Origin: Bacteroidales bacterium
Lineage (GTDB): Bacteria; Bacteroidota; Bacteroidia; Bacteroidales; WRLA01
Length of the DNA: 64,000 nucleotides
Reading direction: 5' to 3'
Assembly: GCA_963676725.1 (NCBI GenBank)
Contig: OY781463.1
Location: 2,701,421-2,765,420, forward strand
The notes below the pieces were generated by a model, which searched no databases, had not been told where the DNA came from, and was given only the letters and a program-made list of their open reading frames with translations. Each line of letters begins with the position of its first letter. Position 1 is the first letter of the stretch. The translations under genes were made by a program, and so were the position numbers. Shown here in pieces: positions 29,186 through 61,112 of the stretch.

Positions 29186-29414
29186 ATGGTCTTAAAAAAA
29201 CATCAAATTTAATGATAACTGTTGTGTAATTAAAGTCTTTGTTGATTAATTGAATTTCAAGAAGAACTTGAAGTTATATATTACTGGTTTACATATCTGA
29301 ATCTCAAAAGTAATTGAATTATTATACTTACTAAACTGCTTGAAAAAATGGCAATTACATTTAACTTTGATTGCGTCAACACTAATTCCATATATTGCTG
29401 AAAGGCTCTATTCT

Positions 29415-29735
29415 TTAATTACCTTTAAGTTCTTTTATAAAGTATATTGGTGCATAAATTATATTTAAAAATATTAACAACAATAAATTTATAGTGCTAT
29501 CTTTTCTGTTTTTCCAAACTATAATATTGTATATCCAAAAAACAAAAGCAACTAATCCTGTCAATCTGGCTAATAAACTAGATGTGTACAATCCTATTTT
29601 CTCGGCTATCACTTTCTTTGCTTCATAATTATCAGCAGTCAGTAAAAAAATTGGAATTAGCAATATTAATAAAACATACACAATGCTAATTATCCAAAAC
29701 ACTATCCATAAATTTTTTTTTCTCATATTTCTCAT
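29415..29735 (-). CDS. Small membrane protein, putative immunity protein for cassette F (apparent paralog of 38032..38331)
   Basis: 106 aa with three or four TM helices. The C-terminal half FVFWIYNIIVWKNRKDSTINLLLLIFLNIIYAPIYFI aligns with FGFSIYNLYIWAKYDKRITIFFLLFFLMGLYTPFYYL of the cassette A partner. Confidence 0.6.
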   Translation of the reverse strand: MRNMRKKNLWIVFWIISIVYVLLILLIPIFLLTADNYEAKKVIAEKIGLYTSSLLARLTGLVAFVFWIYNIIVWKNRKDSTINLLLLIFLNIIYAPIYFIKELKGN

Positions 29736-29739
29736 ATTT

Positions 29740-30885: not shown

Positions 30886-31014
30886 ATTTAATAAATTACA
30901 CTTTTAAAATGTCGAGTTTTTGGGGAAGCTTACACATAATAATAAATATGTTTTTTAATTTAAAGCAAGCTCTCTAATTCCAAGTGCGTATGGATAATAC
31001 AGTGAGTTGTAATA

Positions 31015-31719
31015 TTAATCAATCTCTTTGTCTTTCAATCTGGGGTCGGCAATTAATATATAATCTTCCGAAACTCCTTTATAGAAACCCAAATTTTCAA
31101 TAGTGTATTTTTCCGTTAGCATAGTGTCAATTACAACTCCGTTATTAGTTAATTTATAAATTGTTGAAGATTGATAATAAACGCTGTCAGGTGTACAATA
31201 TGCTTCATGGAGGTCCGATCCTCCTAATTCAATAGTACCATCACCGTCTAAATCTCCATAATAAGAAGCTTTAGTTTTAGTTATCAATATACACTTCTCG
31301 TCTTTAATCTCCAATATATGATAATTATTCCCGAGAATTGGATCAAATTCCTCCAAAATTAAATATTCTAAATTATCCAGTACTAAAAACTTTACGCGAC
31401 CCCTATTAAGATAAAAGGATTCATTAGTTAGACTATTATAGACCAGATTTGACCTAATATATAAGCTGGGGTGAAGGTAAATCGTATCTCCTTTATCAAC
31501 TAGTCCTGAATCTGGTGCCACAATATATACTGAATCATTTATGTCAACCAACAAGAAGTTGTTTTTTTCTTGCTTTATGTCAATATCATAAGTTGTTTCA
31601 AGTTCGTATAGTGCATCTGGAATTGATGAGTGCTTTTGATTTTCAATAGTTGAATTATTGCAAAAACAACCAGAAAATAGAAAACAGCCGATTATGTAGA
31701 ATAATTCTATTGGCTTCAT
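31015..31719 (-). CDS. Lipoprotein, putative immunity protein for cassette E
   Basis: I chose the start MKPIELFYIIGCFLFSGC (lipobox LFSGC), ATG at 31719, 4 nt after the toxin stop. It contains a DGDG motif (YYGDLDGDGTIELGG). Confidence 0.6.
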   Translation of the reverse strand: MKPIELFYIIGCFLFSGCFCNNSTIENQKHSSIPDALYELETTYDIDIKQEKNNFLLVDINDSVYIVAPDSGLVDKGDTIYLHPSLYIRSNLVYNSLTNESFYLNRGRVKFLVLDNLEYLILEEFDPILGNNYHILEIKDEKCILITKTKASYYGDLDGDGTIELGGSDLHEAYCTPDSVYYQSSTIYKLTNNGVVIDTMLTEKYTIENLGFYKGVSEDYILIADPRLKDKEID

Positions 31720-31723
31720 AATT

Positions 31724-32923
31724 TTATTCAATGTCCCCGTCCTCAAACCTTCCTCCTTTCGTAAAGTCAAACCACCAACCTTCTTGAACAACCATTTCAT
31801 CATTACTACTTGAATTTTGAGAAGGGCTTTGTGTGACATTTTTACCAAACACTTGATTCTTAATGATTATCATGATCAAATTTATAAATGAAAGAGGATT
31901 TTTGTCTGAACTTTGATTATTCAAGTACATATTAGACTTAGGTCTGCTAGGCCTATCATCTACAGCTGTTTTATCTTTGTTTAAAATAAAAAATTGCGGA
32001 GATGATTTAGAGCCAAATGTTTGCGAGATAGTGCCAACTTTATTTATTTTGCCTACATTCATTACTAAAACCTCATCCTCGCTTTTAGGAGAAACCACAG
32101 CAATATGACCACCAAATTTCCCGGGTTTCTCTCCACTACCATCATTTGATACATAGGAGGCGATGACTGTTATTCCTTTTTTTGCATAATAGATAGCATT
32201 CTTTTCATTAACAGGCGTTGCGAAATTGTTGTTGACGTACTTGCCAACAGCTCCTCTAAGCTTCCAGCCCATTTGATTAGCTGTGTAATCATTTATTTCA
32301 TAGTCTCCTAAAGAATAGTCCCTGGCTTGATTCAAAATATACTGAACTCCAATATTACAATATGTAGTTTCACCATTCTTGGGCCATTTTTTAATAGCTT
32401 CATTGCCAGCCGCAATTAAACCTTTTATTGTTGGGAAAATTCCATTCCCATCTGGGTCTATAAAAACAATGGGATTGTTAGTAGCGTAGTTATAACACGA
32501 AAATGAATAAAATTCTTCTGAAAGCATATCCAAGACAAACCATCGTCCTAGCCCTGCATCATACATCCTCGCCCCATAATCATACCAATCCAAACCAAAC
32601 TCATCCTGCAGCTCACTTCGACTACGCTCAGTGCAACGCTTGCCGTTGTATTTGTATTTGTTTTCGGAGCAGGAATTGCTATAGCTTAAGCCTTTTATAT
32701 TCATCCCATAGGGATAATAGGTATCTTCCTGCAAGACATTTCCGTTTTGGCTGAGGCTAATGCGGGTGTTTCCCAAATGGTCTTTCAGGAAGTACTGGTA
32801 TTCGTATGTGTCCTCGTTTTGCTTCATAATGCGGCCTTCGGAAGTGAGGATAAACTGGAGTTGGTTGTTTTCATAAACAAAGTTAGTAATATAATTGGTT
32901 TGGTCAAGAGCACTGCCATCGGA
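31724..32923 (-). CDS. Rhs C-terminal toxin cassette E (candidate papain-fold Cys/His amidase or peptidase C-terminal domain)
   Basis: The frame is open from 32923 (SDGSALDQTNYITNFVYENNQLQF...) and the first ATG is at 32827. Core end ...YKYNGKRCTERSRSELQDEFGLDWYDYGARMYDAGLGRWFVLD...NNPIVFIDPDGNG. The C-terminal domain has TTYCNIGVQYIL (Cys) and FGGHIAVVSP (His), as in NlpC/P60/CHAP-like enzymes. Confidence 0.7.
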   Translation of the reverse strand, partial: SDGSALDQTNYITNFVYENNQLQFILTSEGRIMKQNEDTYEYQYFLKDHLGNTRISLSQNGNVLQEDTYYPYGMNIKGLSYSNSCSENKYKYNGKRCTERSRSELQDEFGLDWYDYGARMYDAGLGRWFVLDMLSEEFYSFSCYNYATNNPIVFIDPDGNGIFPTIKGLIAAGNEAIKKWPKNGETTYCNIGVQYILNQARDYSLGDYEINDYTANQMGWKLRGAVGKYVNNNFATPVNEKNAIYYAKKGITVIASYVSNDGSGEKPGKFGGHIAVVSPKSEDEVLVMNVGKINKVGTISQTFGSKSSPQFFILNKDKTAVDDRPSRPKSNMYLNNQSSDKNPLSFINLIMIIIKNQVFGKNVTQSPSQNSSSNDEMVVQEGWWFDFTKGGRFEDGDIE

Positions 32924-32937
32924 TTATTCGAGCTTTC

Positions 32938-33102
32938 CATTTGCCCACCAAAAACTGCTTTTGGGCTGTCATCTATAGTGCTAAAGGTGAGCCAAGCATT
33001 ATGGCCAAAATACCAATTGTTGGCCTGCTTGCTTTGGGCATGAGCAAAAACAGCTCCTAAAAGCAGTGTGAATAATAATAAATATGGAGCATGATAATTC
33101 AT
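32938..33102 (-). pseudogene. Leader fragment L2 (signal peptide plus NNWYFG N-terminus) with the same out-of-frame junction as L1
   Basis: MNYHAPYLLLFTLLLGAVFAHAQSKQANNWYFGHNAWLTFSTIDDSPKAVFGGQM is followed by the same junction sequence as L1 (..SSNNPMAVLLT.PIILL..). Confidence 0.75.
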
Positions 33103-33261
33103 TTAAATGTAATTCCCTTTCTAACTAGAAGATTGCACTCTGACGTTAAGTGTTCCGCCGGATTCACAATGTTTTGAATACCATGGCATAGTATATATTA
33201 ATTGATATATAATATTATGCTACTATTTGCAGTCAAGCTAAATATCAATGTTTTATTCATA

Positions 33262-33459
33262 TTATTTTTTTTTCAAATATGAATAGGAAAATTCAGCGAA
33301 CATATAGCCAATATATATTCCTGCCTGTAAAAAAAATAAATATGTAAATACTTTGTGCAAACGTTCATGTAGAAAGAAAAAAAATAAAAAATATAACCAA
33401 AAAACCAAAACTACAATGATGCGCGAATTAGAGGCAAGCCAATATTTAAAACCATTCAT
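33262..33459 (-). CDS. Small membrane protein (second immunity-type ORF after cassette D)
   Basis: 65 aa with two TM helices. It overlaps the upstream small ORF by 14 nt. Confidence 0.4.
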   Translation of the reverse strand: MNGFKYWLASNSRIIVVLVFWLYFLFFFFLHERLHKVFTYLFFLQAGIYIGYMFAEFSYSYLKKK

Positions 33460-33670
33460 CTTTCTTGAGATTAATTGCTGATATTAATATAGCGAAAAGC
33501 ACTATTAATTCTGATATTCCATATAGCTTAGAATACTTATATTCAATATACTCTCCAAAAAATATTGAAAACAGAATTTGTGCGAAACCAATTACTAAAC
33601 TAGTAATATGAATCTTTTTTGCTAAACTGTTATTCAAACTCTTCTTTTTCCTTTCTTTTTTTCGCTTCAT
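33446..33670 (-). CDS. Small membrane protein, putative immunity protein for cassette D
   Basis: 74 aa with a basic N-terminus and two TM helices. It overlaps the 3' end of cassette D by 41 nt. Confidence 0.45.
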   Translation of the reverse strand: MKRKKERKKKSLNNSLAKKIHITSLVIGFAQILFSIFFGEYIEYKYSKLYGISELIVLFAILISAINLKKDEWF

Positions 33671-34817
33671 TGATTAAGTGTTTTTCCCATCTTTTTATCC
33701 GATCCTTCTCATAGTCTTCTTTTTGTTTCTTATCAGCATTTTCCCAAGCGTCTGGGTCTGTTTTTTTAATGTGCTTGCCAACAACTGACTCAAAATCATT
33801 TAGACGATAAAATCTAGTATTTTTGTCTTCATTTGGATTACTAAAAAATTCTTTTCCCATATCTCTTCCTTTTTCATCTTTTTCGTTTTGTGTTTGGTCG
33901 TATGGCCTCTTTGAAGGATCCTTATTAAAAAGATGATTAAAAGCATCTGCCGCTGTGGCAATTGTTACCACTACTGCCGCGGTCACAAGTTTAGGATTTC
34001 CTTCCGGATTACCTTTCGGCTTTCCTTCACCACATGAGTTGAGGTTTGAGTTGTTTTTTCCTATATTTTTACTATGATTTCTAGCATTCTTCAGTTTCTC
34101 CTTTTGAGAACGAACCTCTCTATTTTCTTGTTCTTGTCTTTCGTCACGAAGATCTTCCCAATATTTATAAGTTATATATGTAGTTATGGCTGTAGTAGTT
34201 ACCGCTGCTTGATAAATAGTATAAATGATAAAAGGGTACTCTCCATTCTTATCTATAAATATAACAGGGTTATTGACTGCATAAGCATATGTTGTTTGAA
34301 ATCGATACAATTCAGCTTTGGGATCAATTGAATGAAACCTCCACAAAGCCGCATCATACATCCTCGCCCCATAATCATACCAATCCAAACCAAACTCATC
34401 CTGCAGCTCACTTCGACTACGCTCAGTGCAACGCTTGCCGTTATACTTATATTTATTCTCAGGGCTGGAGTTGGCGGTACTCAAACCGGCAATGTTCATT
34501 CCAAAAGGATAATAGGCATCTTCCTGCAAAATATTCAGGTTTTCATCAAAGGTAATGCGGGTATTGCTCAGGTGGTCTTTTAAGGAATACTCATATGCAG
34601 GGCTGCCATCTTCCTCTATCGTGATGCGCCCCTGTGCAGCCATTAAATAAGCAAGCTCCGTATTGTCCCCGTTTACATCAGAATACACAAAACGTCCGGC
34701 ATAGTCAAACGTTTTGGAAACTGGTGGTCGATGCGGGTCTGTTTCCGAAGCTTTGTGCCAGAGGCCGCAATAGGTAGTTAATTCCCAGTATGATAGTGTT
34801 CCTTGAGCTTGTTTCAC
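33630..34817 (-). CDS. Rhs C-terminal toxin cassette D (5' region frameshifted relative to cassette G; TM-plus-charged C-terminal domain)
   Basis: ...SKTFDYAGRFVYSDVNGDNTELAYLMA...LKDHLSNTRITF...YKYNGKRCTERSRSELQDEFGLDWYDYGARMYDAALWRFHSIDP...NNPVIFIDKNGEY. Upstream of SKTFDY the DNA matches cassette G but lacks 1 nt (ggaaactgg versus ggatatctgg). The C-terminal domain has a TM-like YPFIIYTIYQAAVTTTAITTYITY and a long K/E-rich tail. Confidence 0.7.
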   Translation of the reverse strand: MKQAQGTLSYWELTTYCGLWHKASETDPHRPPVSKTFDYAGRFVYSDVNGDNTELAYLMAAQGRITIEEDGSPAYEYSLKDHLSNTRITFDENLNILQEDAYYPFGMNIAGLSTANSSPENKYKYNGKRCTERSRSELQDEFGLDWYDYGARMYDAALWRFHSIDPKAELYRFQTTYAYAVNNPVIFIDKNGEYPFIIYTIYQAAVTTTAITTYITYKYWEDLRDERQEQENREVRSQKEKLKNARNHSKNIGKNNSNLNSCGEGKPKGNPEGNPKLVTAAVVVTIATAADAFNHLFNKDPSKRPYDQTQNEKDEKGRDMGKEFFSNPNEDKNTRFYRLNDFESVVGKHIKKTDPDAWENADKKQKEDYEKDRIKRWEKHLINEAKKRKEKEEFE

Positions 34818-34902
34818 TTAAGCTGATCTTTTAATGTAAATTTGATCAATAATACTTTTAAAATGTCCATTTTATTGAGAAGCCAACATCTATTAAAATC
34901 TA

Positions 34903-35280
34903 TTATTCCTTATATATTATGATTCCATTAATTTTTAGTTTTCGATCGTTAACAACTTTTACCATATGCTCTCTTTTGTCTATGAATGCTGGTGAAAATG
35001 TTTCCATGAGGCCATATTTATAACATTTTAATACTATACCTCTATTTCTTTTATAACTCCATGTTCCTTTGCATGTTTTATGTGAATAATTACCGATAAT
35101 TCTTAAGTTAAAAGTGCTGTCACTGTTCAACTGCAAAATATAGTAATATTCATTTTTTGTTGGGCGGCTCTTATATATGCCTTGAAAATTATCATGTTGC
35201 ATGTAATAATTTGAGCTACATGAGAATAGCAATATAATAAGAAATAGATGCAAGTTAGTCCTGATAATAATAATCCCCAT
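34903..35280 (-). CDS. Lipoprotein, putative immunity protein for cassette C
   Basis: 125 aa, MGIIIIRTNLHLFLIILLFSC (lipobox). It overlaps the toxin 3' end by 26 nt. Confidence 0.55.
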   Translation of the reverse strand: MGIIIIRTNLHLFLIILLFSCSSNYYMQHDNFQGIYKSRPTKNEYYYILQLNSDSTFNLRIIGNYSHKTCKGTWSYKRNRGIVLKCYKYGLMETFSPAFIDKREHMVKVVNDRKLKINGIIIYKE

Positions 35281-36526
35281 AAGTATCTCCTTTTACTATA
35301 CTTTCATTACTTGGTAGATTTTGTAATGCTTTATTATTTGGATACGCCTTAAGCCAATCTTCCCTCTTAGAATAAATGTCTAAAGGATATTGTGCCGTAT
35401 TAGCCTTTCCATTAGGCCCATAAAAACTACCGTCATCTATATTTTTCACCCAACTTCGGGTAATTAGCTCATATTTATTCGCAATTCCATAAGATTGAAT
35501 ATTTTGAACAGAGACTGGGGAAACATTAAACTGCGCCCGATAGGCTTCCACTTCATTTTTAAGATCGACTAAAAAAGCTAATCCACTGGATTTGAAAAAA
35601 GCTATTTCCCCTTCCATAAATTGTTTAACATGCGTCACCTCATGGATTAGTACAGCAGCATTAGTATAAATAACATTAATTTTATTATCCTCTAATAATT
35701 CTAGAGTGCCAGCTTTCCCATTTACGGAACCTTCCATCGGCGTCAATACAAACGTCTGTTCCTCAGTGGCCTCCATATCATCCATGTGTTTAAGAGATAC
35801 CTTTAAACGAAATATCCTCTTATTTAGCCTTTCTTTTTTCTTTTCGCTGTTTTTTTCAGTATGTAGCTTATTGGTCAGCCTCCCTACTAATTTTTCCAAA
35901 AATCTTCTTTGACGCTCAAACTCTTCTTGACTGGCAGGGTCAATATCCATTCCTGTGGGATCTGTATAGCGAACGGGATTATTTGCAAACATTCTGTATG
36001 GACTAATTGGGTGGTATTTTTCAAGAAGCGGATCCATGCTTAATGTCATGGTCAGAGAAGCGTCATAGAATCTTGTTTCAAAATCATAGCAATTTAGTCC
36101 AAAGTCCTCCTGATGTTCTTTGCCGTTGTATTTGTATTTGTTTTCAGAACAGGAATTGTTATAGCTTAAGCCTTTTATATTCATCCCATATGGGTAATAG
36201 GCGTCTTCCTGTATAATGTTCAGATCTTCATCAAAGGTAATGCGGGTATTGCCCAGATGGTCTTTTAAGGAATATTCATAAGATGAACTGCCATCCTCAT
36301 GCATTACTATCCTGCCATGGTTTGCCATTAAATAGGCAAGTTGGGTGTTGTCCCCGTTGTTGTCTGCATAAATAAAGCGGCCGCTATAATCCCATGTGGC
36401 AGACAATTGATGGTCGATCTTTGTCTGTTTGCGTAGTTTAATGCCATTGGCTGCATATGAAAAGTTCACTGACTGCATAATCGATCCACTGGTATTTGTT
36501 CCGGTACTATTAATCTTTTGAGGCAA
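35255..36526 (-). CDS. Rhs C-terminal toxin cassette C (HExxH metallopeptidase-like C-terminal domain; orphan, TTG at the boundary)
   Basis: It has the same 5' homology boundary as cassette F. ...YKYNGKEHQEDFGLNCYDFETRFYDASLTMTLSMDP...NNPVRYTDPTGMD. The C-terminal domain contains AAVLIHEVTHVKQFMEGE. Confidence 0.7.
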   Translation of the reverse strand: MPQKINSTGTNTSGSIMQSVNFSYAANGIKLRKQTKIDHQLSATWDYSGRFIYADNNGDNTQLAYLMANHGRIVMHEDGSSSYEYSLKDHLGNTRITFDEDLNIIQEDAYYPYGMNIKGLSYNNSCSENKYKYNGKEHQEDFGLNCYDFETRFYDASLTMTLSMDPLLEKYHPISPYRMFANNPVRYTDPTGMDIDPASQEEFERQRRFLEKLVGRLTNKLHTEKNSEKKKERLNKRIFRLKVSLKHMDDMEATEEQTFVLTPMEGSVNGKAGTLELLEDNKINVIYTNAAVLIHEVTHVKQFMEGEIAFFKSSGLAFLVDLKNEVEAYRAQFNVSPVSVQNIQSYGIANKYELITRSWVKNIDDGSFYGPNGKANTAQYPLDIYSKREDWLKAYPNNKALQNLPSNESIVKGDTYGDYYYQD

Positions 36527-36544
36527 ATTTAAAAAATATATTCA

Positions 36545-36739
36545 TTTAATAAATACGCTGGAGTAACCTTCTCCCTGAAATATTTGCCCACCAAAAACTG
36601 CTTTTGGGCTGTCATCTATAGTGTTAAAGGTGAGCCAAGCATTATGGCCAAAATACCTTTGTTGGCTTGTGAGATGTGCTGCGAAACGCCTACTAATATG
36701 TTGAAAATAAAAAGTTAGATAATAATACTTTTGCAACAT
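36545..36739 (-). pseudogene. Leader fragment L3 (degenerate signal-peptide region; retains ..YFGHNAWLTFNTIDDSPKAVFGGQIFQGEGYSSV)
   Basis: It is homologous to L2 and to residues ~39-72 of the 550-aa protein (DGQIDQSEGCASI). There is a deletion in the AQ.KQANNW segment, and a stop lies immediately upstream of cassette C. Confidence 0.65.
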
Positions 36740-36787
36740 GGCACACTTCCAAGTAGATTTTTATTACACGCTATCCTAATGTAAAAA

Positions 36788-37264
36788 TTATTTAATATTT
36801 AAGTTGTCAATCACTGCTATAATGTTTTTTAGGTCACTGTCTTTCCATTGATTAACTCTACTTTCCATTATCTCTGCAATATATTTATCTTGGTTTTTAA
36901 AAACCAACGTGTTTTTGCGAATACCATATCCAACTTTTTGTTTGTAGTACTCATATTTAAGCAAATAATACGGAATGGAAACCGATCGTTTCCAAAAGAT
37001 ATATCTATAATAGAAAATAGTACATAGCTGTTTATTCTCGGAAAATGCAACTTTATAAACCACTCTGCCTTTATTGCGACTTATCATTAATATTATAATC
37101 AAAAGAACAATTAACTGAATACCTATCCAATACGTATAAAAAAAAGAAGCACCTTTAGCAATAAAAACAAAATTTATAATTGGTAGGATGTTAAATTCTG
37201 AATTATACTTACTATACCAATAAAACTTTTTTTTAAAAACCTTCATAATGGGTATTTTATTCAA
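36788..37264 (-). CDS. Membrane protein, putative immunity protein for cassette B
   Basis: 158 aa with two TM helices near the N-terminus followed by a soluble domain. It lies 17 nt downstream of the toxin stop. Confidence 0.5.
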   Translation of the reverse strand: MNKIPIMKVFKKKFYWYSKYNSEFNILPIINFVFIAKGASFFYTYWIGIQLIVLLIIILMISRNKGRVVYKVAFSENKQLCTIFYYRYIFWKRSVSIPYYLLKYEYYKQKVGYGIRKNTLVFKNQDKYIAEIMESRVNQWKDSDLKNIIAVIDNLNIK

Positions 37265-37281
37265 TTTACATGAATGTTGTG

Positions 37282-38001
37282 TTAATAAAGTGATTTATTT
37301 CTATAGTGATCACGCAATGCTTCTTCAGTTGGATCCATCTCTTCTACCTGTTCTTTAGGATTCATTGTTTTATTAATAATTTCATTAAAATTCTCTTTTA
37401 CTGAATTTATCGCATTTTGAATTTTACCACCAACAGATTCAAGGAATTCTTTACCGGAGGATACAATAAACTTGGTCGGTTCAGAGGCAGTAACAAGCAT
37501 ATTTGCACCCGAAACAGCACCGTCTATTGTATATTTAGGAGATCCTCCTGTAAGGCCGACTCCTAAATCCACTACAGCCCCTGCTTCTCGTAATCCTGAA
37601 CCTTCCATATCAAAAGCTTTTTCGGCAGTAGCTGCTGTTAATTCACCTAAGCCTCCCGGTACATTGTTCTCCCCATCATTAGCGGCACCATCAATAATTT
37701 GTGCCGTACCCAGAGCAATTGTTCCACTCCCGCTTATAATTAAAACTACACCAGCTGGACCCCCAACTCCCGTCGCAGCTAGACCAACCCCTCCGACCCA
37801 TTGGGTAACACCTCCAGCAACAGTAAGGCATCCTAGAGCAACATCCCAGCCATCTTCTCCGTTAATATCAATAAATCTCATTGGATTATTATATGTATAA
37901 TGGAATGGGGTTAATGAATAGTATTTTTCAGCTAAAGGATCAACAGCATGCCACCGGGCGATTTGAGGGTCATAAAACCTCGCCCCGTAATCATGTCTTA
38001 A
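37282..38001 (-). pseudogene. Rhs C-terminal toxin cassette B, 5'-truncated within the core (starts at ..[10 protein letters not shown]); glycine-zipper C-terminal domain
   Basis: The open frame from 38001 reads [52 protein letters not shown]... and the first ATG is at 37881. The C-terminal domain is Gly-rich ([29 protein letters not shown]) and ends [10 protein letters not shown]. Confidence 0.7.
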
Positions 38002-38031
38002 TCACCTGCCAACAAATTATAGTGAAATACA

Positions 38032-38331
38032 TTATACCCACCCTTTTCTTTTTGCATTAAGATAATAAAATGGGGTGTACAGTCCCATAAGAAAGAAAAG
38101 AAGGAAAAATATAGTTATTCTTTTGTCGTATTTCGCCCATATGTATAAGTTATAAATAGAAAATCCAAACGTTACATATGATAATATACTACGAATACAG
38201 GAAAAAACATCCCCAATTAAAATATCTTTTAAAAACATTAATTTGAATATCGATGAAAGGAAAATACCAATGAATACTGCAAATAATAAAAAATTCGATA
38301 TTAGTGCGACGGTTAATACAGTTTTTTTCAT
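38032..38331 (-). CDS. Small membrane protein, putative immunity protein for cassette A
   Basis: 99 aa with three TM helices. It is an apparent paralog of 29415..29735. Confidence 0.6.
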   Translation of the reverse strand: MKKTVLTVALISNFLLFAVFIGIFLSSIFKLMFLKDILIGDVFSCIRSILSYVTFGFSIYNLYIWAKYDKRITIFFLLFFLMGLYTPFYYLNAKRKGWV

Positions 38332-38343
38332 AATAAATATTAT

Positions 38344-39372
38344 TTAATAAAGTTCGCCATTTCTAAAATGCAACAGCATTGCCTCTTTTATAGGAGATAA
38401 TGTTGGAGTAATAGATTTTGATTTATTATTATCCAAGTCAGAATTGTTGTTATTGACCTTATTGCTACTGGGTGTATATTTTATTTGTAATTCTGCTCCT
38501 ACTCCTACCATAAGAGCATTTACACTTTGACTTATTCCGAAACCAAAGCCGTCACTACTTGCAGACACTTCGGCGCGACCAGCTCCTACAGAAACAGTTG
38601 GTTTAGGGTCATCATCTTCTTTGGCTTTATTTTCAGTATTCGATGATATTATTGGACTGACATTTGTCTTTGAGCTTTCAAATGTGTATGGTCCCAAACT
38701 GAGAGAATAATTGTCAAAATGTCCTTCGGTTGTAACTCTGTTAAATTCAGGACATACATTGAAATTACCAGTTTCGGTATCGTAGCTAAAAGAGATGGTA
38801 AGTGTATTCTTTAGGCTTCCGTCAAAATCATAATTTAAACTATATGGTGTTTGAGTAAAAGGAATCTTTCCGCTAAAACCAATGCTTCCACTACCCATAG
38901 ATAAAGAAAAACTAAAAGACCATTCATCATTTCCATCTGGATCTATATAAAAAATAGGATTGTTATTAACGTATAAATAGGGAGAGGTGTTGTGATTTCC
39001 CTCTGATAAATTATCAATCACATGCCACCTCCCCAAAACCGCATCATAAAACCTCGCCCCGTAATCATACCAGTCCAATCCAAACTCATCCTGCAGCTCA
39101 CTTCGACTACGCTCAGTGCAACGCTTGCCGTTGTATTTGTATTTGTTTTCGGAGCAGGAATTGCTATAGCTTAAGCCTTTTATATTCATCCCATAGGGGT
39201 AATAGGCGTCTTGCTGCAAAACAGTTCCGCTTATTCTATGGGTGACGGGTATTTTATCGAACCGAATCAATGACAATTGCTTGGCTTCTAATGCACAATA
39301 AGCGGTACCATTTGTATGTATGGATGCGGTTTGGTTCACATTCTTTAATATTCGGACGAAACAAAAGTACAA
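38344..39372 (-). CDS. Rhs C-terminal toxin cassette A, fused at its 5' end to a copy of the first 14 codons and upstream region of the 550-aa gene
   Basis: The N-terminus MYFCFVRILKNVNQ is identical to that of 23850..25502 (part of the 70-nt repeat; TTG start). It continues ...LQQDAYYPYGMNIKGL...[43 protein letters not shown]...NNPIFYIDPDGND. The C-terminal domain is beta-rich and ends LLHFRNGELY. Confidence 0.7.
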   Translation of the reverse strand: MYFCFVRILKNVNQTASIHTNGTAYCALEAKQLSLIRFDKIPVTHRISGTVLQQDAYYPYGMNIKGLSYSNSCSENKYKYNGKRCTERSRSELQDEFGLDWYDYGARFYDAVLGRWHVIDNLSEGNHNTSPYLYVNNNPIFYIDPDGNDEWSFSFSLSMGSGSIGFSGKIPFTQTPYSLNYDFDGSLKNTLTISFSYDTETGNFNVCPEFNRVTTEGHFDNYSLSLGPYTFESSKTNVSPIISSNTENKAKEDDDPKPTVSVGAGRAEVSASSDGFGFGISQSVNALMVGVGAELQIKYTPSSNKVNNNNSDLDNNKSKSITPTLSPIKEAMLLHFRNGELY

Positions 39373-46237: not shown

Positions 46238-46972
46238 ATGGATTTCTACCAAAGCATTGCCTCTTATTATGATGATATTTTTCCTAAAAACCCCTTGCAG
46301 AGCAGCTTTGTTTTGCAATCAATCGAGGATGCAGGCAATAGCCGGCTTTTAGACATTGGTTGTGCTACAGGGAGTCTATCTTTAAGTCTAAGTTCTCATT
46401 TACAGTATATTGAAGGCATAGACATTGATCGTGAGTTTCTCGGCATTGCAGCAAAAAAATCGCCCAAAAAATGCACCAATGTTCGGTTTACCTATTGCGA
46501 TATGTTGAAAATCGGGCAGCAGTTTGGAGCAAATTCATTTGATGCACTTGTTTGTTTTGGGAATACGCTTGTGCATCTTCCGGATATGAATGCTATGGAT
46601 CGTTTTCTCAAAAACGCTTCCGAAGTCTTGCGTAAAGATGGAAAAATGCTCCTGCAAATTATTCATTACGACAGAATACTCGATCAGGACATCTGGCAAT
46701 TGCCAACAATCGATACAGAAAAAATCTGTTTTGAACGCAATTATGCCACTAATAAATCAACAAAGCGCATCGCCTTTAAGAGCAGTCTTCTCATAAAGAA
46801 AAGTGGCGAACGCATTCAGAATTCTATTGAACTCTACCCCCTTCGAAAAAAGGAGCTACATAAGCTTTTAGAAGACAATCATTTCGGTGATATACAGTTT
46901 TATGGGAATTTCAATAAGAAGGAATTAGAAACGAATGACCAGCCACTTATTATTGAATGCAGGCGTTTGTAG
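46238..46972 (+). CDS. Class I SAM-dependent methyltransferase
   Basis: Motif I LLDIGCATGSLSL and post-I/II spacing (FDALVCFGNTLVHL). Confidence 0.8.
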   Translation: MDFYQSIASYYDDIFPKNPLQSSFVLQSIEDAGNSRLLDIGCATGSLSLSLSSHLQYIEGIDIDREFLGIAAKKSPKKCTNVRFTYCDMLKIGQQFGANSFDALVCFGNTLVHLPDMNAMDRFLKNASEVLRKDGKMLLQIIHYDRILDQDIWQLPTIDTEKICFERNYATNKSTKRIAFKSSLLIKKSGERIQNSIELYPLRKKELHKLLEDNHFGDIQFYGNFNKKELETNDQPLIIECRRL

Positions 46973-46994
46973 TTTTCGAGTTGATGGTTACGAA

Positions 46995-49900
46995 TATTTT
47001 ATTTCGCTGCACTCAACTTTTTGTCCCGCGGATTTTCGCAGAGGGATTCGCAGTAAATATCTTTCCTTTCCACGAAGAACGCCAATAGCCGCTAATTCTC
47101 CAACTGCTGGCGCGAATTTGCAAGCCGTGCCCCAAAAACACTTTACGAATCGGACTTTTATTTCTTCCACGAAGGATGCAGATATTTCGCTTACTTCGGC
47201 TACGCTCAGCACAGGTCGCTCAACTTTTCTTTTCCCGCGGATTTTCGCAGGGGGACTCGTTCTGCTTATCCTTTCTTTTTGTCCCGCAGATTACGCGGAT
47301 TTTCGCAGATGGATTTGTAGTAAATATCTTTCCTTTCCACAAAGAACGCCAATAGCCGCTAATTCTCTAACCGCTGGCGCGGATTTGCAAGCCATGCCCC
47401 CAAACCAAATTCCAAATCGGACTTTTGATTCTTCCACGAAGGATGCAAATATTTCGCTTACTTCGGCTACGCTCAGCACAGGTCGCTCAACTTTTCTTTT
47501 CCCGCAGATTACGCAGGGGGATTCGCTCTGCTTATCCTTTCTTTTTGTCCCGCAGATTACGCGGATTTTCGCAGATGGATTTGTAGTAAATATCTTTCCT
47601 TTCCACGAAGAACGCCAATAGCCGCTAATTCTCCAACCGCTGGCGCGAATTTGCAAGCCGTGCCCACAAACCACTTTACGAATCGGACTTTTGATTCTTC
47701 CACGAAGGATGCAGATATTTCGCTTACTTCGGCTACGCTCAGCACAGGTCGCTCAACTTTTCTTTTCCCGCAGATTACGCAGGGGGATTCGCTCTGCTTA
47801 TCCTTTCTTTTTGTCCCGCAGATTACGCGGATTTTCGCAGATGGATTTGTAGTAAATATCTTTCCTTTCCACAAAGAACGCCAATAGCCGCTAATTCTCC
47901 AACCGCTGGCGCGGATTTGCAAGCCATGCCCCCAAACCAAATTCCAAATCGGACTTTTGATTCTTCCACGAAGGATGCAAATATTTCGCTTACTTCGGCT
48001 ACGCTCAGCACAGGTCGCTCAACTTTTCTTTTCCCGCAGATTACGCAGGGGGATTCGCTCTGCTTATCCTTTCTTTTTGTCCCGCAGATTACGCGGATTT
48101 TCGCAGATGGATTTGTAGTAAATATCTTTCCTTTCCACGAAGAACGCCAATAGCCGCTAATTCTCCAACCGCTGGCGCGAATTTGCAAGCCGTGCCCACA
48201 AACCACTTTACGAATCGGACTTTTGATTCTTCCACGAAGGATGCAGATATTTCGCTTTGCTCAACTTTTCTTTTCCCGCAGATTACGCAGGGGGATTCGC
48301 TCTGCTTATCCTTTCTTTTTGTCCCGCAGATTACGCGGATTTTCGCAGATGGATTTGTAGTAAATATCTTTCCTTTCCACAAAGAACGCCAATAGCCGCT
48401 AATTCTCCAACCGCTGGCGCGGATTTGCAAGCCGTGCCCCAAAAACACTTTACGAATCGGACTTTTATTTCTTCCACGAAGGATGCAGATATTTCGCTGC
48501 ACTCAACTTTTCTTTTCCCGCGGATTTTCGCAGGGGGATTCGTTCTGCTTATCCTTTCTTTTTGTCCCGCAGATTACGCGGATTTTCGCAGATGGATTCG
48601 CAGCGATTATATTTCTTCTCTACGTAGAACGCTGATTTCCATCCAACCGCTGGCGCGGATTTGCAAGCCGTGCCCCCAAACCACTTTACGAATCGGGCTT
48701 TTGATTCTTCCACGAAGGATGCAGATATTTCGCTTACTTCGGCTACGCTCAGCACAGGTCGCTCAACTTTTCTTTTCCCGCGGATTACGCAGAGGGATTC
48801 GCTCTGCTTATCCTTTCTTTTTGTCCCGCAGATTACGCGGATTTTCGCAGATGGATTTGTAGTAAATATCTTTCCTTTCCACGAAGAACGCCAATAGCCG
48901 CTAATTCTCCAACCGCTGGCGCGGATTTGCAAGCCGTGCCCACAAACCAAATTCCAAATCGGACTTTTGATTCTTCCACGAAGGATGCAGATATTTCGCT
49001 TACTTCGGCTACGCTCAGCACAGGTCGCTCAACTTTTCTTTTCCCGCGGATTTTCGCAGAGGGATTCGTTCTGCTTATCCTTTCTTTTTGTCCCGCAGAT
49101 TACGCGGATTTTCGCAGAGGATTCGCAGCGATTATATTTCTTCTCTACGTAGAACGCTGATTTCCATCCAACCGCTGGCGCGGATTTGCAAGCCGTGCCC
49201 CCAAACCACTTTACGAATCGGGCTTTTGATTCTTCCACGAAGGATGCAGATATTTCGCTTTGCTCAACTTTTCTTTTCCCGCAGATTACGCGGATTTTCG
49301 CAGATGGATTTGTAGTAAATATCTTTCCTTTCCACGAAGAACGCCAATAGCCGCTAATTCTCCAACCGCTGGCGCGGATTTGCAAGCCATGCCCACAAAC
49401 CAAATTCCAAATCGGACTTTTGATTCTTCCACGAAGGATGCAGATATTTCGCTTTGCTCAACTTTTCTTTTCCCGCAGATTACGCAGGGGGATTCGTTCT
49501 GCTTATCCTTTCTTTTTGTCCCGCAGATTACGCGGATTTTCGCAGAGGATTCGCAGTAAATATCTTTCCTTTCCACGAAAAACGCCAATAGCCGCTAATT
49601 CTCCAACCGCTGGCGCGGATTTGCAAGCCGTGCACACAAACCAAATTCCAAATCGGACTTTTGATTCTTCCACGAAGGATGCAGATATTTCGCTTTGCTC
49701 AACTTTTCTTTTCCCGCAGATTACGCAGGGGGATTCGCTCTGCTTATCCTTTCTTTTTGTCCCGCAGATTACGCGGATTTTCGCAGATGGATTTGTAGTA
49801 AATATCTTTCCTTTCCACGAAGAACGCCAATAGCCGCTAATTCTCCAACCGCTGGCGCGAATTTGCAAGCCGTGCCCACAAACCGAATTCCATAGCAGTT

Positions 49901-50345
49901 CTTTATTTCTTCCACGAAAAATGCAGATATTTCGCTGCACTCAACTTTTTGTCCCGCAGATTACGCAGGGGGATTCGTTCTGCTTATCCTTTCTTTTTGT
50001 CCTGCAGATTACGCGGATTTTCGCAGAGGGATTTGTAGTAAATATCTTTCCTTTCCACGAAGAACGCCAATAGCCGCTAATTCTCCAACCGCTGGCGCGA
50101 ATTTGCAAGCCGTGCCCACAAACCGAATTCCATAGCAGTTCTTTATTTCTTCCACGAAAAATGCAGATATTTCGCTGCACTCAACTTTTTGTCCCGCAGA
50201 TTACGCAGGGGGATTCGTTCTGCTTATCCTTTCTTTTTGTCCCGCAGATTACGCGGATTTTCGCAGAGGATTCGCAGCGATTATCTTTCTTCTCTACGTA
50301 GAACGCTGATTTCCCTCCAACCGCTGGCGCGAATTTGCAAGCCGT
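46995..50345. repeat. Non-coding satellite: ~14 tandem units of 240-266 bp with 532-bp higher-order (A/B alternating) structure
   Basis: The 266-nt periodicity shows in track ORFs 47291/47557/47823/48089. Alternate units are identical (47291..47674 equals 47823..48206 at protein level). Each unit carries two cccgcagattacgc boxes and gccgctaattctccaaccgctggcgcg. Shorter units lack a 26-nt core (acttcggctacgctcagcacaggtcg). Confidence 0.95.
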
Positions 50346-50499
50346 GCCCCTAATCTTCAAGATTTTAGCTTAACTTTTTAGACACAGATGTGTTTTGCTT
50401 GATTCGACTTACTTCGGCTACGCTTGTTTCGAGGGTCTCAGCACTAAAGGACAAGCTCAATGCATCGCATCGCAGCACGGGTCGCTTACAACAAGCCGC

Positions 50500-51015
50500 T
50501 TAATTTTTGTCTTTGATAAGAAAGCGCCATAGCCCAAGAAAGATATTTAAACCCGGCACTCTCTTTTGGTAAAGAATTGTTTCACTACCAAAACGTTCCC
50601 GCAAATAGGCATCTTCAAAAACACAACCTAAAGCGATAAAAACAATGGACATCAAGGCAAGCAAAATAATCCATATATTTTGACTGAGAAAAATAAAACC
50701 TAAAGCGAATAAAATAAAACCGAAATACTGCGGATGGCGCAGCAAGGAAAAAACACCTTTATCGACCAAATAATTTGTTTCCATATAATTCCCTTTCATA
50801 GGCAATCCATATTTTCTTAAATGGATCAATCCTATCAACCAAAAAAAACTTCCAGAAATCCACAAAACACCCCCTATAATTGTAAGCTTGGGAAAAACAG
50901 GAACACTTGGAATGAAAACATGGAAGAAAAAACAAAGAAAAAGCATAGAAAAACCCACTTTCAAACTATGGCCAAAAAACTTTCCTTTGAAATACCCACT
51001 CTTTTCTTCCACCAT
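50500..51015 (-). CDS. Isoprenylcysteine carboxyl / phospholipid methyltransferase-family membrane protein
   Basis: Polytopic membrane protein with the family motif LLRHPQYFGFILFALGF. Confidence 0.75.
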   Translation of the reverse strand: MVEEKSGYFKGKFFGHSLKVGFSMLFLCFFFHVFIPSVPVFPKLTIIGGVLWISGSFFWLIGLIHLRKYGLPMKGNYMETNYLVDKGVFSLLRHPQYFGFILFALGFIFLSQNIWIILLALMSIVFIALGCVFEDAYLRERFGSETILYQKRVPGLNIFLGLWRFLIKDKN

Positions 51016-58325: not shown

Positions 58326-58736
58326 ATGAACGATTATGAACACGACAAAAATCCGGCATTCTTCCGTTTTGAAGAATTAAGGATTTACCACAAATCGCTG
58401 GATTATATATGCTGGGTAAACCAGCATCAGCCAATCCCGGAAGCGAAAAAACAACTGCTTTGCGAAAAATTTCAAACAGCAGCTGCGAATATTGCGATCA
58501 ATATTGCTGAAGGATCGGCGCGAAACAAAAGCCAGTTTGTTTACTATCTGAAAATGTCGAAGAGTTGCATCCGCGAATGCGTTGTTTTTACAAGCACCAT
58601 GCACAAATTGGGATATTTCTCAGATGAAGAAGAACAGGAGTCGCGCAATCAACTGATGGAAATGACCAAAATGCTTGGCGCTTTCATCGGTTCTTTACAA
58701 CGAAATCAGCGCGATGATGACCACCGAGATGATTAA
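58326..58736 (+). CDS. Four-helix-bundle protein (23S rRNA intervening-sequence protein family)
   Basis: FEELRIYHKSLDY...NIAEGSARNKSQFVYYLKMSKSCIRECVVF matches the family pattern (L.vy.....l......NIAEG..r.s..ef..fl.iA.GS..E). Confidence 0.8.
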   Translation: MNDYEHDKNPAFFRFEELRIYHKSLDYICWVNQHQPIPEAKKQLLCEKFQTAAANIAINIAEGSARNKSQFVYYLKMSKSCIRECVVFTSTMHKLGYFSDEEEQESRNQLMEMTKMLGAFIGSLQRNQRDDDHRDD

Positions 58737-60194: not shown

Positions 60195-61060
60195 TCTGAA
60201 TTTTAAATACATAAATCCCCTGATTTACAAATGATAATACCACCCATTCTGGGTTTGATCATGCGCTGCATCCTGAATTTCTATAATAATGACATCCCTA
60301 TCGGGATTGGTGTGTGCTATTGAACCATTTGTTCGGTTTTGATGGAAATTTATGTGAAAAACACGCCTTATTTATTACATATCAGAACATTAAAACCCTG
60401 AAAGGGTGACATGATTATAAAAAGGCCTAACCTACTGGCTATCAAAACCCTGAAAGGGTGACACAATTATTACATTAGCATGCAACACCCAAAATACCTG
60501 AATTTCAAGTATTATAATACCACCCATTCTGGGTTTGATCATGCACTGCATCCTGAATTTCTATAATAACGACATCCCTATCGGAATTGGTGTGTGCTAT
60601 TGAACCATTTGTTCGGTTTTGATGGAAATTTACGTGAAAAACACTCCTTATTTATTGCATATCAGAACATTAAAACCCTGAAAGGGTGACATGATTATAA
60701 AAAGACCTAACCTACTGGCTATCAAAACCCTGAAAGGGTGACACAATTATTACATAAGCGCGCAACACCCAAAATACCTGAATTTCAAGTATTATAATAC
60801 CACCCATTCTGGGTTTGATCATGCACTGCATCCTGAATTTCTATAATAATGACATCCCTATTGGGATTGGTGTGTGCTATTGAACCATTTGTTCGGTTTT
60901 GATGGAAATTTACGTGAAAAACACGCCTTATTTATTGCATATCAGAACATTAAAACCCTGAAAGGGTGACATGATTATAAAAAGACCTAACCTACTGGCT
61001 ATCAAAACCCTGAAAGGGTGACACAATTATTACATAAGCGCGCAACACCCAAAATACCTG
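60195..61060. repeat. Tandem repeat, 3 x 280 bp, each unit containing two copies of a 20-nt hairpin motif
   Basis: aataccacccattctgggtttgatcatgc starts at 60236, 60516 and 60796. Each unit carries aaaACCCTgaaAGGGTgaca twice, with starts 53 nt apart. It lies in a convergent intergenic region. Confidence 0.9.
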
Positions 61061-61112
61061 AATTTCTTCTTTGAAACCTCAATAAGCATTAATACTCAGG
61101 ATTCCAGAATAT

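Follow-up and report, generated by a model that had tools for sequence, protein, structure and literature searches.

The window, i.e., the whole 64-kb stretch of DNA that was analysed, contains a tandem repeat array of approximately 3.4 kb (46997-50354) located between two convergent genes of an uncultured Bacteroidota bacterium. The gene on the left encodes a SAM-methyltransferase, whose closest named relatives belong to Marinilabiliales (45-47% identity), and the gene on the right encodes a PEMT/ICMT-family membrane methyltransferase on the opposite strand, leaving no gene downstream of the array to regulate. The first repeat sequence begins 25 nt past the methyltransferase stop codon. Degenerate partial units cap both ends of the array, and the entire intergenic gap is thereby filled. 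The locus comprises the following elements:

46238-46972 (+), class I SAM-methyltransferase gene, 244 aa (Pfam Methyltransf_25/31/11, E 1e-12 to 1e-15)
46973-47011 (+), left boundary, the tail of a partial unit (…ggttacgaatattttatttcgctgca), by inspection homologous to the X/tail section of a unit
47012-50350 (+), unit array, 14 head-to-tail units
47012-47218 (+), u1, 207 bp, A/B fused
47219-47485 (+), u2
47486-47751 (+), u3
47752-48017 (+), u4
48018-48259 (+), u5
48260-48501 (+), u6
48502-48761 (+), u7
48762-49027 (+), u8
49028-49262 (+), u9
49263-49456 (+), u10, 194 bp, without the A module
49457-49697 (+), u11
49698-49939 (+), u12
49940-50179 (+), u13
50180-50350 (+), u14, truncated
47219-48259 (+), higher-order block, u2-u5 as two copies of a 532-bp dimer
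50351-50499 (+), right boundary, a degenerate partial unit extending to the converging gene's stop codon
50500-51015 (-), PEMT/ICMT-family membrane methyltransferase gene, 171 aa (Pfam PEMT E 1.4e-11, ICMT E 1.1e-7)

The units were delimited by a combination of TRF, an anchor motif, MAFFT alignment, nhmmer and module typing. TRF reported periods of 266 (4.6 copies, 94% match, score 2236), 242, 259 and 240 bp over 47027-50350. The anchor motif occurred 14 times, with spacings of 267, 266, 266, 266, 242, 236, 266, 259, 194, 241, 242, 240 and 232 bp, and a unit-derived nhmmer profile gave 14 matches in the array (E 1e-56 to 1e-90). These results agree with an earlier note on this DNA, which had described about 14 head-to-tail units filling the gap between the two genes and had proposed TRF as a check on the unit boundaries. 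The size variants of the unit were 266, 242, 260, 235 and 194 bp. The 532-bp higher-order period previously proposed for units 2-5 was borne out by an identity of 99-100% at a lag of 532 bp; u2/u4 and u3/u5 were 98.1% and 99.2% identical, respectively, compared with 94.7-96.6% for adjacent units. The near-identical terminal pair was likewise recovered as u12/u13, the last full pair (98.3%). The MAFFT alignment confirmed that the 240-242-bp units are missing a segment, which measures 27 nt (tacttcggctacgctcagcacaggtcg); TTG or GCA is found in its place. In the right boundary, the K-tail (acttcggctacgct…cagcacgggtcgct) comes after an 'Xend' segment (ctaatcttcaag…) and is interrupted by a 47-nt insert. 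The strand composition of the array was markedly asymmetric (GC skew -0.17, AT skew -0.17).

The corresponding loci of related strains were reached through cluster members. Four independent long-read assemblies from metagenomes (L008-L011) represent the same species, with flanks 99.0-99.6% identical to the window. All four carried arrays at the same locus, with differing module orders and, in ascending order, with 4, ~6, ~6 and 11 units as assembled, versus 14 in the window; these copy numbers were read from the assemblies, L008 and L011 represent one sample, and L010 contains many small indels resembling consensus errors. The array lengths were 2741 (L008), 1399 (L009), 1434 (L010) and 990 bp (L011), versus 3388 bp in the window. 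The related-genome search proposed in the earlier note thus revealed the copy-number variation that it was meant to look for, with 4 to 14 units among same-species assemblies. Every strain seen keeps an array, and zero or one unit was found in none. The 39-nt leader of the left boundary was also present in L008-L011. The Xend and K segment of the right boundary was internal to the array in L011, and the array of L009 meets the right flank within the K-tail. Two JGI short-read contigs (L012, L013) terminate at the array, and the array explains the breaks that short-read MAGs from this lineage have at the locus. Modules were typed in five strains as A (a/b), M1/M2, X1/X2/X3/Xend and K+/k, and nearly all combinations occur. 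The module breakpoints fall in any conserved stretch and are not limited to the core described below. Deletion variants, namely u1 and u10 (A/B fusions) and u2 of L009, are joined at internal direct repeats.

It is extremely improbable that the array is an artefact of assembly or a repetitive protein gene, even though tandem arrays are prone to assembly collapse or expansion and the arrays on related contigs were assigned ORFs of 159-413 aa by gene callers. Five independent assemblies show the array at the locus. Mis-assembly is an unlikely origin because four independent long-read assemblies carry an array at this position. As for coding, the unit lengths of 266, 242, 260, 235 and 194 bp are not multiples of 3, vary by indels and break every reading frame. 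A translated array ORF, compared against 5.8 billion proteins, matched only array ORFs of the same species, and these products contain no Pfam domain. The array is non-coding, in line with the earlier reading.

The small dispersed motifs that had been noticed at 22.5-23.1 kb turned out to be one complete unit, diverged and in reverse orientation relative to the array:

22814-23036 (-), solo diverged complete unit (~65-70% identity, nhmmer E 2.7e-10)
22952-22978 (-), core of the solo unit

The proposal that the unit is a composite of small dispersed repeats was not upheld, as a whole solo unit exists and only a 27-nt core is dispersed, in other organisms. The solo unit starts ~60 nt past the end of a GATase gene (stop codon; 23097-23672, -). 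Three other strains each carry one copy of it at the corresponding position, and it is thus stable in four strains. The full unit had no match in plasmid or phage records and is species-specific. The window also contains another intergenic tandem (467 bp, two copies), which is strain-specific and indicates that tandem duplication is active in this species.

The most conserved part of the unit is built of CGCNGAT heptamers:

47283-47309 (+), one B-core as an example (27 nt, CCCGCAGATTACGCGGATTTTCGCAGA), with CGCNGAT occurring three times at a spacing of 9-10 nt
47283, 47549, 47815, 48081, 48323, 48566, 48825, 49092, 49278, 49520, 49761, 50001 and 50241 (+), starts of the 13 B-cores found by regex

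Most units have a shorter A-core ahead of the B-core. Upon inspection, the core is preceded by a T-rich run, itself starts with CCCGC and is not self-complementary. The array contains 58 CGCNGAT heptamers on the + strand and none on the - strand, compared with 5 (+) and 14 (-) in the remaining 60.6 kb of the window. As all 58 are co-oriented, the array may have a directional role. The B-core and the GCTGGCGCGRATTTGCAAGCC segment were almost without change over 27 units from four strains.

The 27-nt core was also found in at least 120 metagenome contigs, with GC contents of 28-67%, as well as in Gemmatimonadota and Bacteroidota plasmids, and a base-exact copy was present in a 72%-GC-type Gemmatimonadota replicon. 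A scan of genome contigs with GCGCGRATTTGCAAGCCRTGC returned only seven single matches, five in coding sequence and two intergenic (Myroides and a Chitinophaga MAG). The core was not found among 2.9 million viral contigs. In other organisms it takes the form of hairpin pairs, single copies or tandem arrays, and dimers of core-bearing elements are head-head, tail-tail or head-tail. Its placement was intergenic at 119 of the 120 metagenome loci. Tandem arrays carrying the core were present at 13 of these loci (periods of 32-352 bp, up to 24.5 copies), one of them longer than 2.1 kb. In an organism from metagenome Ga0256840, a composite element of ~240 bp with the core was found on at least 10 contigs, often in 2-3 tandem copies. 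Across the 120 loci, the core faced its neighbouring genes without bias towards either orientation (45 vs 39) and had no preference for gene 5' ends, and neither a protein family nor a transposase recurred beside it. In 41 hairpin-type elements, both arms keep C-G-C-x-G-A-T, and the spacers and the central base lose complementarity, which fits sequence read-out rather than pure selection for a hairpin.

The near-invariance of the B-core and GCTGGCGCGRATTTGCAAGCC, together with the base-exact core across genomes of 28-67% GC, argues that something recognises this sequence. The array could accordingly be pictured as a protein-binding platform, in which the core would be an iteron-like site of a conserved DNA-binding protein, for example a nucleoid-associated or topological factor, much as REP/BIME elements are sites for gyrase and IHF, and the ~58 co-oriented sites would act as a sink, anchor or insulator between the converging transcription units. 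The exact conservation of the core over phyla and a wide GC range, the manner in which the hairpin arms are conserved, the phasing of 9-10 nt, which would place the sites on one helix face, and the concentration of 58 of the 63 + strand heptamers of the window within the array are all consistent with this role. We nevertheless consider it unlikely: no candidate protein was found and no family recurred beside the motif at the 120 loci, AA/TT periodicity of 10-11 bp was absent from the array, giving no sign of curved DNA, and the 3.5-fold spread of copy number in near-identical genomes speaks against a dosage-sensitive role. Moreover, homogenisation by gene conversion can mimic constraint.

A broader proposal is that the (CGCNGAT)x3 core with its T-run and CCC defines an undescribed, cross-phylum 'heptamer-iteron' class, with a putative conserved reader protein that would seed and remodel tandem arrays by acting at co-oriented cores. 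The core sequence was found in no paper in a literature search and in no Rfam family. Heptamer-based intergenic repeats are known in cyanobacteria as STRR. We regard the proposal as doubtful and put it forward tentatively. If it is true, the reader would be either a domesticated recombinase or a host protein acting on the nucleoid or on DNA topology, and the 3.4-kb array would be the largest known example of the class and not a passive minisatellite. A protein reading the core would also add a member to the known repeat-protein systems (REP with gyrase, IHF or RAYT, and dRS3 with integrase).

The units might alternatively be non-autonomous elements (REP/RAYT-, MITE- or NIME/dRS3-like) that were placed by a transposase or recombinase recognising the core. 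Core elements form dimers and arrays in many organisms, as REP dimers and clusters do (PMC3733652), the neisserial dRS3 is a phage-integrase target (PMC3898611), and the Ga0256840 composite element is both dispersed and often tandem. This origin appears quite unlikely in view of the marks of mobility that were sought. No inverted repeats of at least 14 nt were found in 46700-50800, terminal inverted repeats were lacking, and no target-site duplication was evident. Inspection revealed no GTAG or CGTC tag at the core, and the dRS3 pattern ATTCCC(N8)GGGAAT had no match in the window with one mismatch allowed. No RAYT was identified within the 64-kb window, and no transposase is recurrently adjacent to the core. 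The IS inserted in L135 has unrelated ends. The core is lacking from viral contigs, as is the full unit from phage and plasmid records. Finally, the solo copy is fixed in 4/4 strains, and the breakpoints between modules extend beyond the core.

The possible transcription of the array was addressed with promoter and RNA structure searches. On the + strand, each unit contains a weak hairpin and a T-tract. The skewed strand composition of the array, the hairpin with T-tract, the start of both the array and the solo unit 25-60 nt past the stop codon of a same-strand gene and the existence of tandem sRNA genes (PMC9045159) would suit a transcribed repeat RNA, either an sRNA-gene array (cf. the 12 NsiR1 copies in Nostoc) or a long pyrimidine-rich 3'-UTR or sponge RNA with reiterated binding sites. 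The earlier note had listed such an RNA among its options; we judge it very unlikely, as promoter motif, structure and covariation were all lacking. The Bacteroidetes -7 promoter motif TAnnTTTG occurs on neither array strand, and a sigma-70 scan of the array revealed no excess. A sigma-54 -24/-12 element suggested by GGCACGGCTTGCA on the - strand was dismissed upon inspection, its GG-to-GC spacing being 2 nt too short. Rfam searches of the array gave no family at the gathering threshold or at E up to 10, 20 core-bearing loci were also negative, and no tRNA or tmRNA genes were found. The fold stability of units and modules, whether as RNA or as DNA, did not exceed that of shuffled sequences (z-scores of -0.4 to +0.5). 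In alignment folding of 20 units, none of the 49 pairs on the + strand and none of the 44 on the - strand was compensatory, and there was no compensatory change even between the ~35%-divergent M1 and M2 modules. The unbiased orientation of the core at the 120 loci argues in the same direction.

We consider it probable that the region is a minisatellite/VNTR that is derived from a mosaic intergenic repeat and driven by recombination, most likely neutral or selfish. A mosaic repeat of ~266 bp would have multiplied head-to-tail within the 'dead' interval between converging genes; its core belongs to a family of intergenic elements that crosses phyla. Expansion, contraction and reshuffling of the array would then proceed by out-of-register homologous recombination and by gene conversion among its units, and slippage between short direct repeats within units (e.g., A-core/B-core) may contribute. 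Such a process would yield the 4-14 units and varied module orders in strains with flanks less than 1% apart. Neutrality is opposed by the conservation of the core, by the shared orientation of all 58 heptamers and by the retention of an array in every strain seen, and the recombination hotspot that the earlier note had named among its options is conceivable. An incidental effect is conceivable. As the + strand RNA would be C-rich, G-poor and unstructured, with a weak hairpin and T-tract in each unit, read-through from the methyltransferase gene should be stopped by Rho-type or weak intrinsic termination. The median C/G ratio of this strand is 1.38, with values above 1 in 91% of 78-nt windows, against a median of 0.95 for the genes upstream. 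Because the copy number changes between nearly clonal strains, the array offers a ready strain-typing marker. It also provides a natural system for the dynamics of bacterial minisatellites, including unequal recombination, higher-order repeats and concerted evolution.

Among the known classes of repeats, the array agrees in its defining traits with minisatellites/VNTRs, i.e., head-to-tail units of at least 10 bp with copy-number polymorphism within the species, here 4-14 units. It does not represent a CRISPR array, in which short identical repeats (24-48 bp) alternate with unique spacers of similar size: here the repeat comprises the entire 266-bp unit, and its 'variable' segments exist as 2-4 alleles that recur. 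An integron attC site, an imperfect palindrome with complementary R''/R' core sites, was also rejected: GCTCAAC fits RYYYAAC, yet a complementary GTTGAGC or inverted partner on the same strand is absent, and there are no cassette ORFs. The earlier view that such arrays are unusual in bacteria was overstated, given NIME arrays of up to 2.7 kb (PMC3898611), REP clusters (PMC3733652) and arrays at 13 of the 120 core loci. The present array is among the larger regular non-coding arrays seen in bacterial chromosomes.

The NIME arrays of Neisseria, which span 0.2-2.7 kb, resemble it in being intergenic and in combining a short conserved repeat with 30-160-bp modules in alternative versions, and both are mosaic, strain-variable recombination substrates (PMC3898611). 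A strain-variable intergenic array of alternative modules was indeed observed in our five strains. The NIMEs differ in being an irregular mosaic of RS families with dRS3, a 20-bp repeat with terminal inverted repeats (PMC3898611), whereas here a single regular unit carries a core of direct heptamers and no dRS3 brackets the modules. The REP/BIME and REPIN elements of Enterobacteria and Pseudomonas are also extragenic, favour gene 3' ends and convergent gaps, and occur as singletons, head-head, tail-tail or head-tail dimers and clusters with strain-variable copy number (PMC3733652, PMC3116915). In REP clusters, the tandem reiteration takes in the adjoining DNA as well (PMC3733652), and an extragenic arrangement in tandem was found both here and in the core loci. 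However, REPs are 20-40-bp palindromes with a GTAG/CGTC tag that form lineage-specific families, and RAYT-associated REPs flank a single-copy RAYT (Y1/HUH transposase) gene (PMC3733652, PMC3116915). The basic repeat here is neither such a palindrome nor tagged, and its core is identical across phyla.

The BrickBuilt repeats of Porphyromonas gingivalis, likewise from Bacteroidota, are species-specific, intergenic, non-coding tandems of variable copy number (PMC4596501). They differ in having a 23-nt unit, 19 dispersed copies and small inverted-repeat ends on their leader and tail subunits, and they show promoter activity (PMC4596501), in contrast to the 266-bp unit of the present array, which lacks a promoter motif and inverted ends. 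The terminal inverted repeats of a MITE of this or another type are absent, the array ends being partial units. The NsiR1 locus of Nostoc shares the arrangement of about a dozen direct intergenic copies that are near-identical in the centre and diverged at the outside, but each of its units has a DIF1 promoter and yields a ~60-nt sRNA, upstream of hetF (PMC9045159). A tandem small-RNA gene array of this type is very unlikely for want of a per-unit promoter motif or structured RNA. The TAACTGA direct heptamers of Beggiatoaceae, Cyanobacteria and Bacteroidetes come close to the core itself, as they are direct intergenic heptamers with a patchy cross-phylum spread and up to tens of copies (PMC4679880). 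They follow each other without gaps, for the most part immediately ahead of start codons, whereas the heptamers of the core are spaced, grouped in threes and often arranged as inverted pairs.

The array claimed by the earlier note between a methyltransferase gene and an ICMT-family gene was confirmed. Tandem Repeats Finder, the check that note had proposed, returned overlapping arrays over 47027-50350 with periods of 266, 242, 259 and 240 bp (top score 2236, 94% matches). The invariant anchor TTGCAAGCCRTGC was present in 14 copies, on the + strand only, the MAFFT alignment of the 14 segments gave a clean unit of 266-267 bp, and a profile HMM made from the units matched the array 14 times (E 1e-56 to 1e-90). 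The proposed 532-bp higher-order period was reproduced: u2/u4 and u3/u5 were 98-99% identical, versus ~95-97% between adjacent units, and lag-532 identity reached 99-100%. In the shorter units of 240-242 bp, also reported previously, the alignment placed TTG or GCA where other units carry the 27-nt segment tacttcggctacgctcagcacaggtcg. Units u7, u9 and u14 had a different version of the middle module, M2, which is shorter by 7 nt; u1 and u10 were fusions of both internal core copies, and the near-identical terminal pair corresponded to u12/u13 (98.3% identity). The array is flanked by two genes:

46238-46972, + strand, class-I SAM methyltransferase gene, left flank
50500-51015, - strand, PEMT/ICMT-family gene, right flank, convergent with the methyltransferase gene

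The first 39 nt beyond the methyltransferase stop codon and the last 150 nt ahead of the PEMT/ICMT stop codon were themselves degenerate partial units; thus, the whole 3.5-kb intergenic space is repeat-derived. The nearest named relatives of the methyltransferase were all Marinilabiliales and only 45-47% identical, and a neighbouring gene encodes a 2027-aa SprB-repeat/CHU_C (T9SS) protein, which assigns the host to Bacteroidota.

The non-coding character of the array was upheld. Unit lengths of 266, 242, 260, 235 and 194 bp destroy every reading frame, and the translated longest array ORF had only 4 matches among 5.8 billion proteins, all of them array ORFs of the same species and none with a Pfam domain. 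That the array is an artefact or a coding sequence is hardly credible. A known or structured RNA was also ruled out: Rfam gave no match to the array, either at the gathering threshold or with E relaxed to 10, no tRNA was found in it, and on both strands the folding of whole units and individual modules did not surpass that of dinucleotide shuffles. Across 20 units from four strains, none of the 49 (+) or 44 (-) predicted pairs was compensatory, despite a difference of roughly one-third between modules M1 and M2. TAnnTTTG, the -7 motif of Bacteroidetes, was absent from both array strands, sigma-70-like sites were not enriched, and no helical AA/TT periodicity was detected in the array. A transcribed repeat RNA is regarded as very unlikely. 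The sole signal in each unit, on the + strand, was a T-rich run preceded by a weak 6-bp hairpin (~-9 kcal/mol, z = -0.4). The + strand C/G ratio in the array had a median of 1.38 and exceeded 1 in 91% of 78-nt windows. RNA extending past the end of the methyltransferase gene would be unstructured, rich in C and poor in G, and would carry a weak hairpin and U-tract once per unit. As a side-effect, this would favour termination of the Rho-dependent or the weak intrinsic type ahead of the converging gene.

Copy number in related genomes was determined in four long-read metagenome contigs of the same species (L008-L011), reached together with two short-read JGI contigs via members of the methyltransferase's 90% protein cluster. 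The flanks of the long-read contigs matched the window at 99.0-99.6% identity across 5.6 and 6.9 kb. The intergenic repeat measured 2741 bp in L008, 1399 bp in L009, 1434 bp in L010 and 990 bp in L011 versus 3388 bp in the window, corresponding to 11, ~6, ~6 and 4 units versus 14; L008 and L011 originated from the same sample. Both JGI contigs ended at the first unit. Module typing of the sub-segments (A-core a/b and C/T, M1/M2, X1/X2/X3/Xend, and the K tail present or absent) revealed alternative versions in nearly all combinations, in a different order in every strain; L010 was left out of fine conclusions because of many small indels resembling consensus errors. In L011, the window's right-boundary sequence lies inside the array, and in L009, the array-flank junction falls within K-tail homology; breakpoints are therefore found in any conserved stretch. 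Such a pattern points to homologous exchange out of register together with gene conversion, plus slippage between direct repeats within the unit. The best supported reading, and probably the correct one, is a passive minisatellite (VNTR). On this reading, a mosaic intergenic repeat would have multiplied in a gap between convergent genes that lacks promoters and in which additional DNA is cheap; unequal homologous recombination, gene conversion and slippage would now drive it. The 532-bp higher-order block, a 526-bp M2 pair and the terminal pair would represent recent multi-unit duplications.

The PEMT/ICMT gene was called as 171 aa in the window (50500-51015), L008 and L011, and as 99 aa in L009 (12230-12529) and L010 (12312-12611), despite 99% DNA identity; the short call may stem from an assembly error, a frameshift or an alternative start. 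The SprB-repeat gene of 2027 aa was split into four ORFs in L008.

Three further repeat features were located in the window:

22814-23036, - strand, complete, diverged (~65-70%) solo unit, ~60 nt after the GATase gene stop codon
21047-21986, 467-bp tandem duplication (two copies, 99% identical), in the 2-kb convergent gap shared with the solo unit
60234-61066, 280-bp tandem repeat (three copies, 97% identical), unrelated to the array unit, with small hairpins aaaccctgaaagggtgaca

The motifs that the earlier note had considered dispersed small repeats at 22.5-23.1 kb thus proved to be one further, complete unit. Three other strains carried it as a single copy in the same place with ~99% identity; solo units, unlike the array, are therefore stable. 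The 467-bp duplication was specific to the window's strain; two of these strains (L134 and L136) have one copy, and in the third (L135), a 1.35-kb IS (DDE_Tnp_1, 429 aa) was inserted in the solo-unit gap. The 280-bp repeat lies between a convergent DUF1015 gene and a sensor histidine-kinase-like gene. With three large intergenic tandems in 64 kb, all in convergent gaps, intergenic tandem duplication is evidently common in this species.

The window also contains six consecutive ORFs (27980-39372, - strand), each with an Rhs-associated core domain (TIGR03696, E 1e-12 to 1e-17) and none with a Pfam or PHROG match:

27980-29185, - strand, Rhs ORF
29740-30885, - strand, Rhs ORF
31724-32827, - strand, Rhs ORF
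33630-34817, - strand, Rhs ORF
35255-36526, - strand, Rhs ORF
38344-39372, - strand, Rhs ORF

The stretch resembles a series of orphan Rhs C-terminal toxin modules separated by small ORFs that presumably confer immunity; a full-length Rhs gene was not seen in the window, and the gene content differed among 99%-identical strains.

The most conserved part of the unit was the 27-mer CCCGCAGATTACGCGGATTTTCGCAGA, consisting of three CGCNGAT heptamers with 9-10-nt spacing. The array contained 58 CGCNGAT sites, all on the + strand, and the remaining 60.6 kb held 5 (+) and 14 (-), at chance level. The core CCCGCRGATTACGCRGATTTNCGCAGA was recovered, through a degenerate form of the 27-mer, from at least 120 metagenome contigs, which share only the core with the array unit. 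Among the 120 matches listed, contig GC ranged from 28 to 67%, 119 occurrences were intergenic (16 in convergent versus 7 in divergent contexts), and neither an orientation bias relative to neighbouring genes nor a recurrent protein was found beside the core. With full 90-nt flanks and overlapping categories, 39 of the 120 listed occurrences had an inverted partner 6-20 nt downstream, making a long hairpin, 15 had one upstream, 19 had a direct neighbour and 54 were solitary. Tandem arrays with the exact core in the unit were present at 13 of the 120 listed loci (periods 32 to 352 bp), the largest being 88 bp x 24.5 in L133 (>2.1 kb, truncated where the contig ends) and 71 bp x 13.7 in L125; only 3 loci in the same 696 kb held unrelated arrays alone, an enrichment that is an upper bound because the exact-match search over-samples arrays. 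The cross-phylum range of the core is confirmed by named records, in which hairpin forms lie on plasmids from Gemmatirosa kalamazoonensis (Gemmatimonadota), Haliscomenobacter hydrossis and Bacteroides finegoldii. The core was positioned on two plasmid loci as follows:

L137, 1500-1560, core
L138, 1500-1570, core

In 41 hairpin-type elements, arm mismatches were concentrated in the spacers and the central heptamer base, with C-G-C-x-G-A-T kept on both arms. This pattern fits sequence recognition of the heptamers no less well than it fits selection for a perfect stem. A protein-binding platform read via the heptamers is unlikely as an account of the array. Slightly less probable again is a recombinase or transposase acting on the core and driving amplification, as might be proposed by analogy with REP/RAYT and dRS3/integrase; no inverted repeats of at least 14 nt were present in or around the array, the full unit had no match in plasmid or phage records, and the degenerate 27-mer was absent from 2.9 million viral contigs. 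The core motif had no Rfam match and was not found in the literature searched. What reads this cross-phylum heptamer triplet is a more novel question than the array itself.

A search of 185,579 species genomes for a second conserved brick of the unit yielded only chance or isolated matches. This brick, GGCGCGGATTTGCAAGCCRTGCC, was also intergenic in Myroides sp. WP-1 (L006, ~1189-1209), where three direct copies of TTTATTTACGTGCC follow it, and in a Chitinophaga MAG (L004, ~1372-1392). In metagenome Ga0256840, another organism carried a dispersed composite element of ~240 bp with the same core and weakly collinear flanks, often in 2-3 tandem copies (L014, L030, L040, L049, L052, L053, L055, L067, L070 and L129). 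It is built from blocks arranged in succession, each with 2-4 phased heptamers (CTTCGTG-type, CGCAGAT-type, CTGTGTG-type and ACGGAT/CACGAAT-type), which suggests a shared library of heptamer bricks. At L023, L103 and L112, small homologous proteins (~126-aa ORFs), which we take to be GxxExxY / PD-(D/E)XK-like, adjoin the core. The window encodes a 136-aa protein (58326-58736), whose counterpart in L009 and L010 was annotated as 23S-rRNA-IVP four-helix-bundle family. The GxxExxY-like and 23S-rRNA-IVP groups are multi-copy small-gene families of Bacteroidota.

The earlier reading was largely right; besides the solo unit, it needed correction where such arrays were called unusual in bacteria, since they have precedents. 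The array behaves most like the NIME arrays of Neisseria, intergenic and strain-variable clusters of 0.2-2.7 kb in which a short conserved repeat is combined with alternative 30-160-bp modules (PMC3898611). However, dRS3 was absent from the array and from the window as a whole, as were the palindromic REP and the GTAG or CGTC tag from the array, which belongs to neither the NIME nor the REP family. BrickBuilt is different too, its 23-nt unit lying within a MITE that has inverted ends and promoter activity (PMC4596501), as are the NsiR1 array of sRNA genes, whose copies each have a promoter of their own (PMC9045159), and contiguous heptamer repeats such as those of TAACTGA (PMC4679880). The array is thus a mosaic intergenic repeat cluster behaving as a VNTR, of a kind that is already known.
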